Assembly (NCBI GenBank): GCA_000830295.1 | Contig: CP010425.1 | Span: forward strand, 1,056,001-1,120,000 | Reading direction: 5' to 3' | DNA: 64,000 bases | Origin: an archaeon GW2011_AR15 | GTDB lineage: Archaea; Nanobdellota; Nanobdellia; Woesearchaeales; GW2011-AR15 | The notes under the pieces: generated by a model | What the model saw: the letters and a program-made list of their open reading frames with translations, nothing else | Databases searched by the model: none | What the model was told of the DNA's origin: nothing | Translations under genes and position numbers: made by a program | Shown here: in pieces, positions 26,757-64,000 of the stretch | How positions within the stretch are numbered: position 1 is the stretch's first letter | Layout: each line of letters begins with the position of its first letter

Positions 26757-27188
26757 ATGGAAAAGCCAATATATGTAACTGTAGATGTGGGGAGTTATCA
26801 GGATAACCTTGTGAAAAGAGTAAGCGAGGACTATAAGAGCAAAACATTCGGCGAACTGCTTGAACATCTTACTAACAATGGTCCTGATGAATTAAATGAA
26901 CTCGGGTATAATGCAAATGAAAAAGCAGTTGCTGAGATACTCGGACACAGGCTGTCAGAGGCAAACAGGAATCCTGGAAATGTCAATATATATGCAATAT
27001 CAAATACAGAGCCGCCTGAGGAGATACATGTCAGCCTTTCAGATATAGTCTCTGATTACAACACCAGGATTATAAAGTATGATACAGAGCTCGGAGAAGG
27101 AGGAGAGGAGCTAAAATACCAGAGAATGGATTTTCTTGTGGTTGAGAATGCATCAGGAGGCCTGAAATGGCAAGCCTACAAAGTATAG
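26757..27188 (+). CDS. Putative ubiquitin-like (beta-grasp) protein with GG followed by an 8-aa tail
   Basis: GGAGGTA SD; IYVTVDV, TFGELLEHL, VSDYN, DFLVVENASGG-LKWQAYKV. The ORF is solid; the fold call is inference. Confidence 0.55.
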   Translation: MEKPIYVTVDVGSYQDNLVKRVSEDYKSKTFGELLEHLTNNGPDELNELGYNANEKAVAEILGHRLSEANRNPGNVNIYAISNTEPPEEIHVSLSDIVSDYNTRIIKYDTELGEGGEELKYQRMDFLVVENASGGLKWQAYKV

Positions 27189-27643
27189 CTGCGAGAGGAT
27201 TGACTGCTGGAATACTGGCACTAACCGCCACAGCATGCTCTCTCACAGACGCAAAGCTTGAAGTTATAGATAATCTCTACCAGAGCCTTCCTCAGGAAAA
27301 CCGAAATGAATATGCAGCAGCCATGTTCCTGGATACAGACTACGATACACAGATTACAACGATAAAAGACATTGTTGACAACGGAGAGCTGCAGAGCAGC
27401 GACAATGCATATATAGGCGATAGTGTGCTGATGCATCTTATGCCTGAAGAAAGGACTGCAGTAATGGAGGCGATTATGGATAAATCAGACTATAACGTGC
27501 AGAGAGAACTTACTTTTTACGGAATTGAAAAACTGGATACCGGGGATTTATTCCAGGCCGTGGCAAATTCAGGGGTAAACATATTGAGTGAATTTGGGAA
27601 GAAAGTGAAAGATGCCTACCAGTCTCTCTTCGGAGGAGACTAG
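27167..27643 (+). CDS. Putative lipoprotein
   Basis: Basic and hydrophobic N-terminus ending in ATAC lipobox; overlaps the upstream ORF. Confidence 0.7.
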   Translation: MASLQSIAARGLTAGILALTATACSLTDAKLEVIDNLYQSLPQENRNEYAAAMFLDTDYDTQITTIKDIVDNGELQSSDNAYIGDSVLMHLMPEERTAVMEAIMDKSDYNVQRELTFYGIEKLDTGDLFQAVANSGVNILSEFGKKVKDAYQSLFGGD

Positions 27644-56746: not shown

Positions 56747-56869
56747 GTGATGCAGGTTATTCCGATGTCCCTTATAAATTTTTCTGCCTGTAATTTTTCA
56801 TGCATAATCCCGGAAGCTATCCGGCTTTCCCGTTTATACCAATTTAAAACCCTGCGGTATCTTCATGGC

Positions 56870-58402
56870 ATGGCAGAAAGGAACAGCAGGAACGAGCTTG
56901 CATGGGGGGCTGAAAACCAGGAGAAGCTCAGGAAATCAAAGGTCCTTGTTGCCGGCACAGATATACTCGGCCAGATGGTGCTTGGAGGACTTGCGGGACT
57001 GGGCATAGGCAGCATACATCTCATGGACAACAGGAGGGTAAGCAGGGGAGATTACGATTTTCTGTGCTCACAGACCAATACAGATATCGGGCAGAAAAAA
57101 ACCAGCCATATCAGAAGCACGCTGGAAAGCATAAATCCTTCTATCGATGCGGTTGTAGCTATCCATTCCAGATTCTCTGAAGCCCTGGCCTATCCTCTCC
57201 GGCCGGATATAATAGTGGACGCGACTAACGACCGGCTAACAAAGAAAAAGACTTCTGAATATGCAGCCAAGTACAGGATTCCTGTTATATCTGCCTCTTC
57301 AGGGAGTTCAAAAGCTGCTGTTTCTGTTTTTTCTCCGGCTAGGAAAATAAAACCAATGCACAGCTCTGCTGACCTTGATTCCCTTCTCATGGATGAATTC
57401 TATAAAGAGACGCAGTCTCCTGTGGCGGGCGGGGTCATAGCAGGGATTGCATGCGAGGAAGTGAGGAAGCAGATATTTGCGTATGATAAAAAAGATACTC
57501 CCCTCCAAAACAGGAAAAAAATCATGTATAACCTGAATTCTGAGTCCAGGACAGGAGTTTCTGAACCACAAAACATAGCTTCGTATTTCAGGCACAGGAA
57601 AATGCTGGTTGCCGGGGCAGGGGGCATTGGAACTTTTGTATGCCTTAATCTTGCTCTGCTTGGTGTAGGCTCTATTGATATAGTGGATTTTGATTCTGTC
57701 GAAGAGCACAACCTGAACAGGCAGCTCCTTTTCTACGGCAGGCAGGGTGAGCTGAAGGCTGAAGTGATGGCTGGCAGGATAGCCCTAATAGACCCTCATG
57801 CAGATGCTTCTGCTTTTTCCGCCAGGGTTGGGAAGATAGACATGAAAAAGGACAGGCCATGGCTGGAAGAGCTGTATGAGACAGACAGGAAGCTGTGGGA
57901 GCAGGAAGACGATAATACAAGAGAGCCTGATTATCCTGGGTTTGAGGATTATGTAAAAAAGAATTTCGGCTATCAAAAGGACAGGCTGCTTGATGAGAAG
58001 ATCGCAGAAAAAGGCTATGATATGATTTTCGGCTGCCTTGACAACAAGTATGCAAGAATATGGCTCAACAATTTCTCTGTTAATAACAAAATACCCTATA
58101 TTGACGGCGGAACCGCTGCCAGATCCGGCCAGGTTGCTGTGTATGTTCCCGGAAACACAAGCTGCGTGGACTGCCAGCTCGACCTGAAGCATCTCAAAAG
58201 GATTCCCATGCACTGCCATGAGGCAGATGCCAGCGTGGTCATGTCAAATATGGTTATAGGAAGCGCAATGGTCGGCGAGGCAGTAAGGATATTTTCCGGT
58301 GCAGCCCCCCTGAACGGGATTCTGAGATATGACCCCTTCTCTGATTCGCGGCTGTATATAGATAATAAAAGAACAAGGTTTGCAAAAAAACACGGGTGCT
58401 GA
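56870..58402 (+). CDS. E1-like enzyme with two tandem ThiF/MoeB domains
   Basis: Domain 1 VAGTDILG (degenerate); domain 2 GAGGIG, DFDSVEEHNLNRQ, GCLDN, CVDC, IPMHC; true start MAERN at 56870. Confidence 0.9.
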   Translation: MAERNSRNELAWGAENQEKLRKSKVLVAGTDILGQMVLGGLAGLGIGSIHLMDNRRVSRGDYDFLCSQTNTDIGQKKTSHIRSTLESINPSIDAVVAIHSRFSEALAYPLRPDIIVDATNDRLTKKKTSEYAAKYRIPVISASSGSSKAAVSVFSPARKIKPMHSSADLDSLLMDEFYKETQSPVAGGVIAGIACEEVRKQIFAYDKKDTPLQNRKKIMYNLNSESRTGVSEPQNIASYFRHRKMLVAGAGGIGTFVCLNLALLGVGSIDIVDFDSVEEHNLNRQLLFYGRQGELKAEVMAGRIALIDPHADASAFSARVGKIDMKKDRPWLEELYETDRKLWEQEDDNTREPDYPGFEDYVKKNFGYQKDRLLDEKIAEKGYDMIFGCLDNKYARIWLNNFSVNNKIPYIDGGTAARSGQVAVYVPGNTSCVDCQLDLKHLKRIPMHCHEADASVVMSNMVIGSAMVGEAVRIFSGAAPLNGILRYDPFSDSRLYIDNKRTRFAKKHGC

Positions 58403-58405
58403 AAA

Positions 58406-59506
58406 ATGAAACTGCTTGATGATATACTCAGTAAATATTTTTACAAAACTGCAGGCTCTTCTGGCTCTGATGCCTATGATTCGTCAAGACCTGATTATTC
58501 TGAGAGGTTCAATTTAAGGGATGACGGTCCGGAGTATATCATGAAGATGCAGAGATATCAGTACAGGTTCAGGGAGTGTCTTGAATCCAGGCTTGAAAAC
58601 CCGTCTGAGCCCGGAGAATACAGCAGCAGGATGATAAAGAGCACGGCAGCAATGACAGAGTTCTGTAATGACTATGGCTTTGACGTATCTTCCTATATCA
58701 GGAGCCGCGCGTTTAATGAAAGGAGAGAGCTGCTGAAAGAAAAGCTCAGGAGGAGGATTGCCAGAGATTCCAACAGGGAGATAGACAAGACAGTTGCAGA
58801 TGCTGCAAAGAGCATTAAGATAACAGATTACGCCCTGAAAAAAGCGAATTATGCTGCAAGAAAAATTTCAGAGCTTTCATCAAAAGCAGGGAAGCGCGGT
58901 TCGTACGAACTAGGCATGTACATGCTGAGCAGCTCTTTAAAGAATGACGATGATGTCGTGACTGATATTTATGTTGCACAGGAGCAGGTTGTGACCCAGG
59001 GCAGGTGCAACATAACCCCTGAGGGTGTGATGAAGTCGCTGAGAGATACAAAAAAATCAGGGAAGAGGATAATAGGCTGGGCCCATTCCCACGGCGGCTT
59101 CAGCACATTCTTCTCAGCAGAGGATGATGAAACCCTTCTCGGCAGGAAAAATATAGCAGAGAGCTCTTTTTTCCCGATGTTCCTTGAGAAAAAGGTTAAG
59201 GGGCATTTAGCGCCTGATGATGTGGTAAAATATTTCCTTGCACTTGTGGTAAATGAGAAGAACGATGAGCCGGCCTACAGGATAGTGGCTGTCAAGCCGA
59301 GGTATTTTGTTGAAAACGGGAGACTCAGGAAAAAGACAGAAGTAATAGACCTTGAGAGGACTATATCAGAAAACAGCGGGGAGAACTGGCCTGCTGCTGA
59401 GATAGCGGAAGAGAAAAGCAGGGAAATTGATGCAGAGATAGCCGGCCGCGTAAAGTTCCAGGACGGCACAAGATTAAGTGATTATCAGCCTGTTGTGACT
59501 GAATAA
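58406..59506 (+). CDS. JAB/MPN+ (JAMM) metalloprotease with N-terminal helical extension
   Basis: YELGMYML...IIGWAHSHGGFSTFFSAEDD (E, HxH, S, D). Confidence 0.88.
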   Translation: MKLLDDILSKYFYKTAGSSGSDAYDSSRPDYSERFNLRDDGPEYIMKMQRYQYRFRECLESRLENPSEPGEYSSRMIKSTAAMTEFCNDYGFDVSSYIRSRAFNERRELLKEKLRRRIARDSNREIDKTVADAAKSIKITDYALKKANYAARKISELSSKAGKRGSYELGMYMLSSSLKNDDDVVTDIYVAQEQVVTQGRCNITPEGVMKSLRDTKKSGKRIIGWAHSHGGFSTFFSAEDDETLLGRKNIAESSFFPMFLEKKVKGHLAPDDVVKYFLALVVNEKNDEPAYRIVAVKPRYFVENGRLRKKTEVIDLERTISENSGENWPAAEIAEEKSREIDAEIAGRVKFQDGTRLSDYQPVVTE

Positions 59507-61045: not shown

Positions 61046-61387
61046 GTGGCGGAGATGAAAGGAAAACCACTATTGCCTACATTAAGGATAAAAAAAAGAT
61101 ATGTCGTGTATGAGGTTGTCTCAGAGCAGGCTATAGACTCAAGGGAGGCTGTAAAGGCCATCATAGAGTCATATGCAAAGTGCTTCGGCACATTCGGGCT
61201 TGCTGAAGCAGGAATACTCGACACAAGGATATATGCGGGCAGCAGGGGAATGCTCAAGATAAACCACAGATACGTAGATAACCTGAGGGCAGCAATGGCC
61301 ATGATAAAAACAATAAACACCCAAAAAGTCATCATAAGGACCGCAGCTGTCTCGGGAATACTAAGAAAAGCAAAATTAAAGTTATAA
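61046..61387 (+). CDS. rnp2: RNase P protein Pop5/Rpp14
   Basis: LPTLR.KKRY, FG..G, VSGILRK; first gene of the exosome/proteasome operon. Confidence 0.85.
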   Translation: MAEMKGKPLLPTLRIKKRYVVYEVVSEQAIDSREAVKAIIESYAKCFGTFGLAEAGILDTRIYAGSRGMLKINHRYVDNLRAAMAMIKTINTQKVIIRTAAVSGILRKAKLKL

Positions 61388-61399
61388 GGAGGTCACAAA

Positions 61400-62116
61400 A
61401 TGCAACCACTACAGCACCAGATGATGGGTTATGATAGGGCAATTACAATGTTCTCTCCTGACGGGAGGTTATTGCAGGTAGAATATGCAAAGAAAACAGT
61501 AAGGCAGGGCAGCACTGCAATCGGAATAGTCTGCACTGACGGAATAATCCTTGTCACTGACAAGAGGATTGTCGACAAATTGATAGTCCCTGAGTCCGTC
61601 GAGAAGATATGGAAAATAGACGAGCACATAGGCGTCACAGCCTCAGGAATAATAAGCGACGGCAGGGTGCTTATAGAAAGGGCGCAGGTATTGGCGCAGC
61701 AGCACAAGGTGACATACGACTCACCTATTGATATAATATCCATTGTAAAGGATGTCGCAAACCTGAAGCAGTGGACAACGCAGTCAGGAGGGTACAGGCC
61801 TTTCGGCGTCTCACTGCTGATAGCAGGCGTTGACAACGGCACTCCGAAATTATACGAGACAGACCCGACAGGAATATATTTCCAGTACAAGGCAACTGTG
61901 ATAGGGGAAGGCGAGCCACAGGTCGAGGAAGTGCTTTACAAGGAATACAAGGAAAGCATGAACATGGAAGACGGCTTCAGGCTGGCAATGAGATGCCTCA
62001 AGAAAGCCCTTGACAAGAATTTTGACACTGAAAGGGTGGATGCGGCATTTATTTCCCTGAAGGACCAGAAATTCACAAAGGTGAAAAAGGAGAAACTTCT
62101 TGCATACGCAAAATGA
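61400..62116 (+). CDS. psmA: Proteasome alpha subunit
   Basis: GYDRAITMFSPDGRLLQVEYA, RPFGVSLL, TDPTG. Confidence 0.97.
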   Translation: MQPLQHQMMGYDRAITMFSPDGRLLQVEYAKKTVRQGSTAIGIVCTDGIILVTDKRIVDKLIVPESVEKIWKIDEHIGVTASGIISDGRVLIERAQVLAQQHKVTYDSPIDIISIVKDVANLKQWTTQSGGYRPFGVSLLIAGVDNGTPKLYETDPTGIYFQYKATVIGEGEPQVEEVLYKEYKESMNMEDGFRLAMRCLKKALDKNFDTERVDAAFISLKDQKFTKVKKEKLLAYAK

Positions 62117-62826
62117 AGCCGACAGGTGTAATAGAAAAGGAAAGGATATCCCTCAACCTAGCCAAGCTGAAAAAGGGCGGGGAGCACTTCGAGGTAATCA
62201 TAGACCCTGACAAGATTGTGCTTTACAGGAGCAAAAAGGCAGCTGCCAGGGAAGTCCTTATGTATGAAAAGATTTTCTCAGACGCAAAAAAAGGCTTTGA
62301 GGCTTCTTCTGAGCTTATCGGGAATGTGTTCGGCACAAATGACATACTGAAAGTGGCCGAGACAATCCTGAATGAGGGCGAAATACAGTTCACCCAGGAA
62401 TACAGGGACAATAAGAGGAAGGAAAAGCTGAACAGAATAATAGACATGATCACAAGGAACGCGCTTGACCCTGTTTCAGGCCTGCCGCATCCGAGGACAA
62501 GGATAGTGGCTGCAATGGAAGAGGCAAAAGTGAGGATTGATGATTTTAAGAGCGCTGAAGACCAGATAAACGATATAGTATCAAAGCTGAAGCCCATAAT
62601 CCCGATAAAAATAGGGATGAAGGAGATACATGTGAGGATTCCCACACAGTATGCGGGGAAATCATATTCAACTGTAGAGAAATTCGGCAGGATACTTAAC
62701 GACAGCTGGCTTACGGACGGCTCATGGGCGTGCACTGTCGAGATTCCGGCAGGGCTGCAGAACGATTTTTTCGACGCCTTAAACAAGCTGACACACGGGT
62801 CAGTAGAATCAAAAATTTTGAAATAA
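62113..62826 (+). CDS. Ribosome maturation factor SBDS/Sdo1
   Basis: GEHFEV, IFSDAKKG, FGT.D, EGEIQ, PHP.TRI, EIPAG. Confidence 0.93.
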   Translation: MKPTGVIEKERISLNLAKLKKGGEHFEVIIDPDKIVLYRSKKAAAREVLMYEKIFSDAKKGFEASSELIGNVFGTNDILKVAETILNEGEIQFTQEYRDNKRKEKLNRIIDMITRNALDPVSGLPHPRTRIVAAMEEAKVRIDDFKSAEDQINDIVSKLKPIIPIKIGMKEIHVRIPTQYAGKSYSTVEKFGRILNDSWLTDGSWACTVEIPAGLQNDFFDALNKLTHGSVESKILK

Positions 62827-62842
62827 ACGGTGAAACAAAAAA

Positions 62843-63583
62843 ATGGATAAAACAAACTTAAAAATAAATGATAAAGATGTTGTTGTTCCCGGTGAGATAC
62901 TGGCAGAAGGAATGGATTACCTGCCGAGCCAGGGGACATACAGGAAGGATAACCATGTTATCGCTTCAATGCTGGGACTGGCAAGGATAGAGGGGAAAGT
63001 CATAAAGATAATCCCTCTCTCAGGAAACTATCTCCCCAAAAGAGGGGACGTGATAGTGGGAAAAGTGGCTGACATTAATTTCAGCGGATGGTCTGTTGAG
63101 ACAAACTCCGCATATGCAGCAATGCTTTCCATGAAAGACGCAACCTCTGACTACATAAGGAGGGGGGAAGACCTTACAAAGTACTTCAATATAGGCGACT
63201 ATATTGTCACAAAGATATACAACGTGACAAGCCAGAACCTGATTGACCTTACAATGAAAGGCCCCGGGCTGAGGAAGCTTACAACAGGAAGGATAATGAA
63301 AGTCGCCTCACCAAAAGTCCCAAGGATAATCGGGAAGCAGGGCTCAATGGTGAGCATGATAAAGAAAGCAACAAACTGCAATATAATTGTCGGGCAGAAC
63401 GGCGTAGTCTGGATAAAGGGATTGAACCCTGAGGACGAGCTTATAACTGTCGAGACAATAAAGAAGATAGAAGACGAAAGCCATGTCTCCGGGCTTACAG
63501 GAATCATACAGAAATTCCTGGAAAGCAAGGGCCGGAAGGCAGTTTTGGAAACAGTAACAGAAGAAACTACAGGTGAGGCTTAA
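62843..63583 (+). CDS. rrp4: Exosome RNA-binding subunit Rrp4
   Basis: VVPGE, YLPKRGD (S1 domain), KVPRIIGKQGSM (KH domain), GQNG.VW. Confidence 0.95.
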   Translation: MDKTNLKINDKDVVVPGEILAEGMDYLPSQGTYRKDNHVIASMLGLARIEGKVIKIIPLSGNYLPKRGDVIVGKVADINFSGWSVETNSAYAAMLSMKDATSDYIRRGEDLTKYFNIGDYIVTKIYNVTSQNLIDLTMKGPGLRKLTTGRIMKVASPKVPRIIGKQGSMVSMIKKATNCNIIVGQNGVVWIKGLNPEDELITVETIKKIEDESHVSGLTGIIQKFLESKGRKAVLETVTEETTGEA

Positions 63584-64000
63584 TGGTTTACAAGAAAAGA
63601 CTTGACGGAAGGAAATTTGACGAGCTAAGGGAAATAGAAGCAAAAGTCGGCGTGATACAGAACGCCACAGGCTCAGCATATTTCAGGATTGGAAAGACTG
63701 TTGCATACGCAGCTGTTTACGGCCCAAGGGAACTCTATCCGAGATTCATGCAGGACCCTAAAAAAGGGCTGCTGAGATGCAACTACAACATGCTTCCCTT
63801 CTCAGGCTCAGGCGAAAGAGTAAGGCCGGGTCCGAGCAGGAGAAGCAGGGAAATCTCGCTGGTGACAGACAAGGCATTGCTGCCTGTTGTTGACCTTGAG
63901 CAGTTCCCGAACTCTGTAGTGGATGTTTTCATAGAGCTTCCGCAGACAGACGCAGGCTCAAGATGTGCAGGCATATGCGCAGCCTCAATGGCTCTTGCTG
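63583..64000 (+). CDS. rrp41: Exosome subunit Rrp41 (truncated by the window end)
   Basis: MVYKKRLDGRKFDELREI...GSAY..AAVYGPRE..MLPFS..RRSREIS..DAGSR. Confidence 0.93.
   Translation, partial: MVYKKRLDGRKFDELREIEAKVGVIQNATGSAYFRIGKTVAYAAVYGPRELYPRFMQDPKKGLLRCNYNMLPFSGSGERVRPGPSRRSREISLVTDKALLPVVDLEQFPNSVVDVFIELPQTDAGSRCAGICAASMALA

Follow-up and report, generated by a model that had tools for sequence, protein, structure and literature searches.

Do two adjacent genes in the genome of a DPANN archaeon, one coding for a tandem-domain E1-like activating enzyme and the other for a JAMM protease, belong to a ubiquitin-like conjugation pathway, and if so, where are the remaining components? The pair lies in a 64,000-nt stretch of contig CP010425.1 (positions 1,056,001-1,120,000, forward strand; here called the window) from the archaeon GW2011_AR15 (AR15), whose genome consists of one contig of 1.158 Mb and is 96.8% complete. 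Coordinates below are those of the window unless they are marked as genome coordinates. The tandem E1 gene (56870..58402) and the JAMM gene (58406..59506), which had been recognised in a first-pass annotation of the DNA, were confirmed. Considering domain anatomy, conservation of catalytic residues, predicted folds, gene linkage in relatives and co-occurrence across genomes together, we think it probable that E1 and JAMM belong to a Bil-type conjugation pathway with four components, built around a ubiquitin-like protein (Ubl), and that the corresponding operon has been broken up in AR15. In our best reading, the E2 and Ubl families of this pathway are new.

The open reading frame (ORF) of the E1-like gene spans 56747-58402 on the plus strand. 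Because the N-termini of relatives align there, we took the ATG at 56870 as the start, which yields a protein of 510 amino acids (aa); TTTATA and TTTAAAA, two TATA-like words read by eye, lie 20-37 nt 5' of this ATG. Pfam ThiF matched the protein in three stretches covering both halves (E 6.7e-66). Residues 1 to ~230 form a degenerate, inactive adenylation domain that has VAGTDILG at the position of the glycine loop and is missing NLNRQ/NLxRQ, and residues ~231 to 510 form the active domain with GAGGIG, D273, D275, NLNRQ (281-285), K296 and D391. CVDC is found at 432-435 and is followed, 13 residues on, by Cys449 within the motif RIPMHC (codon 58214-58216), with the C-terminus of the protein a further 61 residues away. 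The sole large insert, which is acidic, Cys-free and probably helical, occupies residues ~325-380 inside the active domain (57842..58009, plus strand; columns ~520-600 of alignment A1). This insert is limited to the closest subgroup of E1 relatives, and all of the 10 closest sequences share its residues W331, L332 and Y336. The chain of about 510 aa with a degenerate and then an intact ThiF domain, the acidic insert and the Cys in RIPMHC, all of which the first-pass annotation had reported, are thus present in the protein.

A protein search with the E1 returned 142 matches at E 0.001 or better, about 90 of which were two-domain proteins of 425-622 aa; where their sources were named, these were Woesearchaeota, Nanoarchaeota or Nanobdellota. 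The ATP-site residues of the second domain (nucleotide loop, Arg finger of NLxRQ, Lys and Asp) are kept in 91-92 out of 92 relatives and the crossover-loop Cys449, the conservation of which the annotation had singled out for checking, in 91, and the CxxC and a C-terminal Cys were found in 69 and 66 of them, respectively. The first domain is degenerate throughout the family, with only the first glycine of the loop invariant among the 92 relatives. Judged by its sequence, the E1 is a single-chain pseudo-dimer with a MoeB-style crossover-loop cysteine. We then scored a profile of 34 family members against solved structures, and of the 81 matches obtained 60 were listed. UBA3 (E 6.5e-38), a chain named 'E1 ubiquitin-activating enzyme' (9qgg, 2.4e-36) and SAE2 (1.1e-35) scored above ThiF (4.9e-32), MoeB (5.2e-31) and TcdA (3.6e-27), with BubCD (3.4e-23) and Cap2 (2e-17) further down, the alignments to canonical E1s covering the core up to the CxxC only and those to ThiF and MoeB the entire domain. 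The clustering with cofactor-biosynthesis or TcdA-type enzymes that had been considered earlier is therefore not what the profile shows, as it places the catalytic subunits of canonical E1s first. The first domain alone matched MoeB and ThiF (~5e-9), the N-terminal inactive domain of UBA1 (1.5e-5) and SAE1 (1.7e-4). Scores in NCBIfam equivalogs were all far under the cut-offs (UbaA, for example, 89 vs 450), and hence no curated model identifies the E1 as an enzyme of a cofactor pathway. No chain named Bil appeared among the 60 listed of the 81 E1-profile matches or among the 49 matches of the JAMM profile.

The JAMM gene begins 3 nt after the E1 stop (58402 to the ATG at 58406, plus strand) and encodes a JAMM/MPN+ metalloprotease of 366 aa. 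Pfam Prok-JAB matched residues 155-244 above the curated cut-off (E 3.2e-6), and the zinc site E168...H227-x-H229...S237..D240 is complete. In an alignment of 29 relatives E168, H227 and H229 never vary, and S237 and D240 reach at least 90% conservation. An N-terminal extension, described as such in the first-pass annotation together with the 3-nt gap, precedes the JAMM domain over ~150 aa. It occurs in 4 of the 29 aligned sequences and is confined to the subgroup that is encoded downstream of E1. The best solved relatives of the JAMM profile were a proteasome-N11-like protein (6fjv, 2.7e-11; presumably from Caldiarchaeum), BRCC36, JAMM1, CSN5 and RPN11. Several relatives carry a second JAMM gene upstream of E1, of which AR15 has no orthologue.

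Gene linkage was examined in 80 loci with E1 relatives from species-representative genomes, in which ORFs were called and searched with the window proteins and profiles. The locus search was seeded by the 10 closest E1 sequences, since the 34-sequence alignment offered no conserved stretch. Many of the loci are truncated by contig ends, and the final dozen or so hold distant single-domain relatives, including Asgard ones. A JAMM gene lies within 4 kb of E1 in 66 of the 80 loci, a member of a previously unnamed family of ~420 aa, which we describe below as E2-like, lies within the same distance in 64, and both are present in 59. When a Ubl gene was also required, for which a distance of up to 6 kb was allowed, 28 loci had all three near E1. 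The gene orders of the closest loci are Ubl-E2-E1-JAB (L008), Ubl-E2-JAB-E1-JAB (L026) and Ubl-E2-JAB-JAB-E1 (L010). Relatives with the same neighbours were also seen in records titled Chloroflexota, Thermoflexales, Deltaproteobacteria, Thermodesulfobacteriota and others. In AR15 itself, the E1-JAMM pair is flanked upstream by a CorA gene and downstream by a gene for a NAGPA-domain protein (Pfam), both on the minus strand, and the earlier remark that no Ubl, E2 or sulfur-transfer gene adjoins the pair holds. The corresponding E2 is not lacking from the organism, as one might have concluded from that remark, because a search of the genome found one outside the window and a second one in a paralogous operon.

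The first of these is a gene for a 415-aa E2-like protein at genome 965160-966407 (minus strand), ~90 kb before the window. Its best matches are the E2 genes of L009, L008, L026, L011 and L010, and because these are loci that hold orthologues of the E1 and Ubl of the window, we regard it as the candidate for the cognate E2. In 23 aligned members of the family the only near-invariant columns are H317, F319 and C327 (HPF-x7-C), and no conserved His follows the Cys. The distance of 10 residues from H317 to C327 is one that we take to be the spacing of the classical HPN...Cys site. An exhaustive search of 1.84 billion representatives yielded 969 cluster representatives with E 0.001 or better, of which 764 passed 1e-10 and 362 passed 1e-30, and a word-based search with the E2 alignment gave 5 matches; the His...Cys motif was present in 140 of the 148 top representatives and HPF in 110. 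The AlphaFold2 (AF2) model of the protein, which has a large N-terminal region, reached a pLDDT (predicted local distance difference test) of 85.3. Its Foldseek list consisted mostly of E2 enzymes at E 0.045 and weaker, and with VIA-align all 50 of the 50 listed rows were E2 enzymes (Z 6.3-7.2, 102-131 residues aligned, model residues 102-409). On the basis of these uniform match lists and of the conserved motif, the family is predicted to adopt a UBC/E2-like fold. Protein Atlas gave weak leads to Prok-E2_D, E2-CBASS and UQ_con by structure (template modelling score <0.5) and to viral hypothetical clusters by features (0.88-0.90). AR15 encodes a further paralogue of 199 aa (genome 175169-175768, L088:3169-3768, minus strand) in which YKHPFV is kept and the active-site Cys is missing, so that by sequence it is like an inactive E2 of the ubiquitin E2 variant (UEV) type; several short E2-like matches were also seen in the related genomes G105 and G067. 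In addition, BLAST clustering put the JAMM and E2-like families into one cluster of 145 genes from 68 loci, and in some loci (L011, L012, L031, L033, L040) long ORFs of 660-1030 aa match the JAMM query, which suggests fusions or a common N-terminal region.

The candidate Ubl is encoded within the window, where the first-pass annotation had pointed to an ORF at 26757 as a possible partner of the E1. This ORF (26742/26757) codes for a precursor of 143 aa from the ATG (26757..27188, plus strand), with GGAGGT 8 nt before the start codon, and the protein ends in ...SGG, comprising G134-G135 (27156-27161), followed by an 8-residue tail. Homologues adjoin E1 in 9 loci by phmmer and lie within 6 kb of it in at least 32 of the 80 loci by profile. 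L94, Y101, G134 and G135 are the only near-invariant columns in 22 aligned homologues, with GG conserved in at least 90% of them and tails after it that vary from 2 to ~20 residues. When small neighbours of E1 were clustered by BLAST, endings in ...QQGG, ...QEGG or ...SGG plus a tail were found in 17/17 members of cluster 2, 8/10 of cluster 4 and 7/7 of cluster 7. The AF2 model (pLDDT 91.7) is a beta-grasp with a helical insert of ~50 aa. Ubiquitin-like, RA, RAWUL, PB1 and DIX domains made up the best Foldseek rows (E 2.5e-3 and weaker), and with VIA-align 50 of the 50 listed rows were proteins of the ubiquitin superfold, among them ISG15, ubiquitin, the TBCE Ubl and FERM F1 (Z 6.6-7.7, root-mean-square deviation 2.3-4.0 Å, 76-94 residues aligned), the matches spanning model residues 1-135 around the helical insert. 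From the uniformity of this list and the conserved motif, ORF 26757 is predicted to be a Ubl with a beta-grasp fold, so that the partnership proposed for it gains from the position of its homologues next to E1 in the closest relatives, from the GG near the C-terminus and from the model.

Co-folding of E1 with ATP and Ubl residues 1-135 gave a score of 0.57 (individual runs 0.57, 0.60 and 0.45) as against 0.00 for the best of three controls, with at least 72% of contacts in agreement between runs and a partner pLDDT of at least 81. Of 157 solved complexes 116 attain the pass mark, as do 2 of 215 mismatched pairs, and passes at 0.60 or under comprise 18 of the 157 solved complexes and both of the passing mismatches. 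Moreover, E1-Ubl complexes have already been solved, and the pass may thus reflect resemblance to known structures. We therefore take the co-fold, which the annotation had suggested as a check, as weak support for the pairing of E1 with the 26757 ORF. The end of the Ubl gene is overlapped by a gene for a 158-aa protein with a hydrophobic N-terminal segment (27167..27643, plus strand), a possible accessory component or target that has no Pfam match. Its homologues in the 80 loci amount to two genes, which flank the JAB-E1-JAB cluster of L007, and its link to the tagging system is weak. GG is absent from both homologues, for which reason the 158-aa protein was rejected as a second GG protein.

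The partners in AR15 were assigned through orthology to operons of other genomes, in which the genes are contiguous. The AR15 genome also contains a second, complete and paralogous operon at genome 134479-138984 (L006:8480-12985), which shows the order Ubl-E2-JAB-E1 and comprises genes for a 205-aa protein ending in ...GGR, an E2-like protein of 448 aa (genome 135093-136439; assigned by its match to the E2-like family), a 384-aa JAMM protein and a two-domain E1, 463 aa long and 33% identical to the E1 of the window. The 205-aa protein is called a Ubl from its position and its ...GGR ending only, and Protein Atlas returned nothing usable for it. This operon lies in a region of ~16 kb in which the genes match Pfam weakly or not at all; they include one for an AAA-like ATPase and one with a weak DUF6638 match. 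Just upstream of the cognate E2 candidate lies a gene for a 350-aa protein (genome 966425-967477, L087:8425-9477, minus strand) that has no confident Pfam match; homologues are found inside the E1 loci L009, L010 and L012, and the protein may represent a fifth component. Within a few kb of the same E2, genome 968503-974358 encodes a very cysteine-rich protein of 1951 aa that looks like a giant surface protein: its N-terminus is signal-like, one stretch is rich in glycine, and a hydrophobic segment lies at the C-terminal end.

Having defined the families, we determined their distribution in a sample of 201 genomes of the order Woesearchaeales, 153 of which are of high quality, using thresholds of E 1e-30 or better for E1 and 1e-8 or better for the E2 profile. 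E1 was found in 21 of the 201 genomes (19 of the 153 high-quality ones) and the E2 family in 45, among them the unpublished genome G121. All 21 genomes with E1 also have E2, compared with 45 of 201 overall; as the genomes are related to one another, this co-occurrence does not amount to a statistical test. A genome of the same genus, 98% complete, had no match for E1, E2 or Ubl. In genome G067, which belongs to the same family, E1 is located on one contig and a Ubl gene flanked by two E2 genes on another. The distant E1 relatives of L072-L080, from records titled Heimdallarchaeota, Thorarchaeota and similar, have a neighbour of 118-121 aa ending in ...PVSTAG; the E2-like family is lacking there, and we hence consider these loci to represent a different Ubl system.

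If the four proteins work together, a reaction sequence can be proposed. The JAMM protease would cut the 8-residue tail off the Ubl and so expose Gly135, which the active domain of E1 would adenylate with ATP, the degenerate N-terminal domain acting as a stand-in for the second subunit of a ThiF-type dimer. The crossover-loop Cys449 would then accept the Ubl as a thioester and hand it to Cys327 in the HPF...C motif of the E2-like protein encoded at genome 965160-966407. Given the large N-terminal region of this protein and the fact that no E3 is visible, the E2 probably both selects the targets and attaches the Ubl to them. Reversal of the tagging may be a further task of the JAMM protease.

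How does such a pathway compare with those already described? To our knowledge, the complete prokaryotic Ubl-E1-E2-deubiquitinase pathways characterised so far all come from bacteria (Bil, CBASS type II and Bub) or from a few eukaryote-like archaeal operons. The closest likeness is to Bil (BilABCD, types I and II, antiphage systems of bacteria), as judged from descriptions of BilABCD. Both have four parts, and in relatives of the AR15 genes these stand in the order Ubl-E2-JAB-E1. In both, the E1 combines an inactive with an active adenylation domain, carries a crossover-region CxxC and C-terminal Cys residues, and lacks a UFD. The Ubls have residues beyond the conserved glycine, which in Bil are removed by the JAMM peptidase, and an E3 gene is absent from both. 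The description of BilABCD gives the operon order as Ubl-E2-deubiquitinase-E1 and reports a Zn site in BilD, which the crossover CxxC and C-terminal Cys of the present family match (bioRxiv 10.1101/2023.09.26.559546). However, by sequence the E1 described here would do without the mobile alpha-helical Cys domain, with only 13 residues from C435 to C449. The E2 differs as well: its His-Pro-x motif is placed upstream of the Cys and the BilB-type His after the Cys is not conserved, whereas a 2006 survey notes, for the kind of operon that was subsequently named Bil, an E2 lacking the classical His and having a His after the Cys. Further differences are the length of ~420 aa of the E2 with its large N-terminal region, the helical insert in the Ubl, the two JAMM genes of many loci, the predominance of DPANN archaea among the hosts, and the dispersal of the genes in AR15. 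In view of the missing Cys domain, the other E2 signature and N-terminal region, the Ubl insert and the lack of a match to any model of a Bil part, we place the system beside Bil and not inside it.

The eukaryotic E1s (UBA1, NAE1-UBA3, SAE1-UBA2) are alike in being pseudo-dimers of a degenerate and an active domain; the best scores of the active domain are to UBA3, UBA1 and SAE2, and the degenerate domain also finds the N-terminal domain of UBA1 and SAE1. In contrast to them, the AR15 E1 is half the size of UBA1, has no FCCH, SCCH or UFD, and carries its Cys in a short crossover loop. The designation 'UBA1-like' given in the first-pass annotation is accordingly correct for the order of inactive and active adenylation domains but not beyond it, as a separate catalytic-Cys domain, FCCH and UFD are lacking and the nearest described design is that of BilD. 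UbaA/SAMP and MoeB/ThiF resemble the system in the ThiF fold, the crossover-loop Cys and a GG-ended beta-grasp partner on which a JAMM protein acts, but differ in that they are homodimers and not tandem chains, in the dedicated E2-like partner and absent sulfur-transfer link of the present system, and in a near-universal rather than patchy distribution. The Ub-E1-E2-RING-Rpn11 operons of Caldiarchaeum and Asgard archaea likewise bring together a Ubl, an E1, an E2 and an Rpn11-like JAMM protein in archaea; here, no RING E3 was seen, Ubl and E2 are unrecognisable by sequence as ubiquitin or UQ_con, and the E1 is a two-domain chain. Bub (6E/DUF6527) is another prokaryotic Ubl-E1-E2 system with a JAMM peptidase, and BubCD is a detectable E1 relative. 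Bub uses Tyr and Ser oxyesters and a DUF6527 serine protease, whereas the E1 and E2 of AR15 keep their cysteines and a DUF6527 gene was not seen, although no systematic search for one was made. A literature search that covered few subscription journals found no such system in DPANN archaea, and supplements to the Bil and Bub papers could list archaeal members. The kind of system that had been announced as an undescribed DPANN tagging system, a Ubl-E2-JAB-E1 operon, is already known from bacteria.

Several observations weigh against assigning the pair to a Bil-type pathway. Every chemical step, the targets and the role are matters that we infer. At the level of sequence, the E2 family has no match to Pfam UQ_con or Prok-E2 (23 members), to PADLOC or to a solved chain, the Ubl family has none in Pfam, ubiquitin families included, or PADLOC, none of the six E2, JAB and Ubl proteins scanned with PADLOC was matched, and searches of solved structures with Ubl and E2 sequences gave nothing meaningful. 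The structural matches of both are middling (Z <8; Foldseek E >0.001). As the mobile Cys domain of BilD and canonical E1s is lacking, the transfer chemistry of the E1 may differ. The four genes of AR15 stand at three places up to ~150 kb apart, and their co-regulation can therefore not be assumed. Finally, a crossover-loop Cys and a GG-ended beta-grasp partner are also traits of sulfur carriers. This last point raises the question of whether the E1 instead adenylates a ThiS/MoaD-like GG protein to form a thiocarboxylate for cofactor, cysteine, siderophore or tRNA thiolation, with the JAMM protease merely trimming the carrier. Sulfur pathways that combine JAB and ThiF proteins are known, such as CysO/Mec and QbsE/QbsD, the active domain of the E1 is ThiF/MoeB-like along its full length, the crossover loop that carries its Cys is short, as in enzymes of the MoeB/ThiF type, and the partner would be a GG-ended beta-grasp protein with a tail. 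Yet a Cys-bearing E2-like gene is found near E1 in 64 of the 80 loci and in all 21 E1-positive genomes, no rhodanese domain or sulfurtransferase was seen in or beside E1, and the pseudo-heterodimeric E1 is of a design known from conjugating E1s. Moreover, the genome contains a third, separate ThiF-family gene of the single-domain kind (genome 460075-461355, minus strand), which may be a conventional sulfur-carrier or tRNA-thiolation E1, its neighbours read by eye being SufB/D-like, cysteine desulfurase-like and PP-loop ATPase-like. We regard a sulfur-carrier function as very unlikely.

The idea that the tag serves housekeeping turnover by the 20S proteasome, in the manner of SAMPylation or of the ubiquitin systems of Caldiarchaeum and eukaryotes, arises from the genes around the pair and from the kinship of the JAMM profile with proteasome-N11-like and RPN11-type deubiquitinases. 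The system's genes are found among RtcB, S17e, Alba, LSm, L37e and an exosome operon, and psmA (61400-62116; Pfam Proteasome 1.4e-55) lies 1.9 kb downstream of E1-JAMM. It is part of a conserved archaeal operon, Pop5/Rpp14-PsmA-SBDS-Rrp4, which runs through 61046-63999 and continues into an Rrp41-like ORF (by eye) that is cut by the window end. The position of psmA is thus as described in the first-pass annotation, but its proximity is not conserved, with psmA near E1 in 1 of the 80 loci and another proteasome-family ORF in one more, and we rejected the linkage as a meaningful one. A divergently oriented gene also separates the JAMM gene from the psmA operon, and the occurrence of E1 and E2 in 21 and 45 of 201 genomes, together with a same-genus genome devoid of E1, E2 and Ubl, fits poorly with core proteostasis; a proteasomal tag appears rather unlikely to us. 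It is highly improbable, in our view, that E1 and JAMM are a decaying remnant, orphaned from a broken operon, with no working Ubl or E2 and heading for loss. The genes are indeed split over three places here and contiguous in relatives, and the complete paralogous operon could make the pair redundant. Against this, all four frames are open and of full length with all catalytic residues intact, useless DNA would be expected to vanish quickly from a 1.16-Mb genome, and G067 likewise has its E1 on another contig than Ubl and E2.

As to function, the first-pass annotation had left the choice between proteasomal targeting and defence. The former is weakened by the unconserved position of psmA, and the patchy distribution and the likeness to Bil favour the latter. 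Provided that the Bil-type pathway is real, a role in conflict or defence comes near to even chances without exceeding them; this part of the argument is by analogy only, and E1 relatives were not found in viral contigs by a search with two peptide patterns. A regulatory role in the cell is the alternative, and the scattering among core genes in AR15 and G067 would fit it. One version of this idea, which we think unlikely but worth stating, is that a reduced DPANN archaeon has dismantled the pathway and wired it into its own cell biology or its dealings with a host, so that it is no defence cassette. AR15 would then use several E2 paralogues, including the Cys-less UEV-like one, and an E2 with a classical His-Pro-x...Cys site, and its E1/E2 lineage might be closer to the eukaryotic enzymes than Bil is. 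If true, this would be an independent prokaryotic parallel to the dispersed, multi-E2 ubiquitin system of eukaryotes.

For the Bil-type pathway that we favour, the consequences would be broader. It would add to the prokaryotic Ubl pathways a family that is common in DPANN archaea, with its E2 in 45 of 201 genomes of the order. The design of its E1, a two-domain scaffold with a crossover-loop cysteine, is simpler than those described, and the enzyme could represent a stage between enzymes of the MoeB type and those of the BilD and UBA1 types. The system is of a size that lends itself to reconstitution, and it could reveal how an E2 acts without an E3, and what role protein tagging plays in ultra-small symbiotic archaea.

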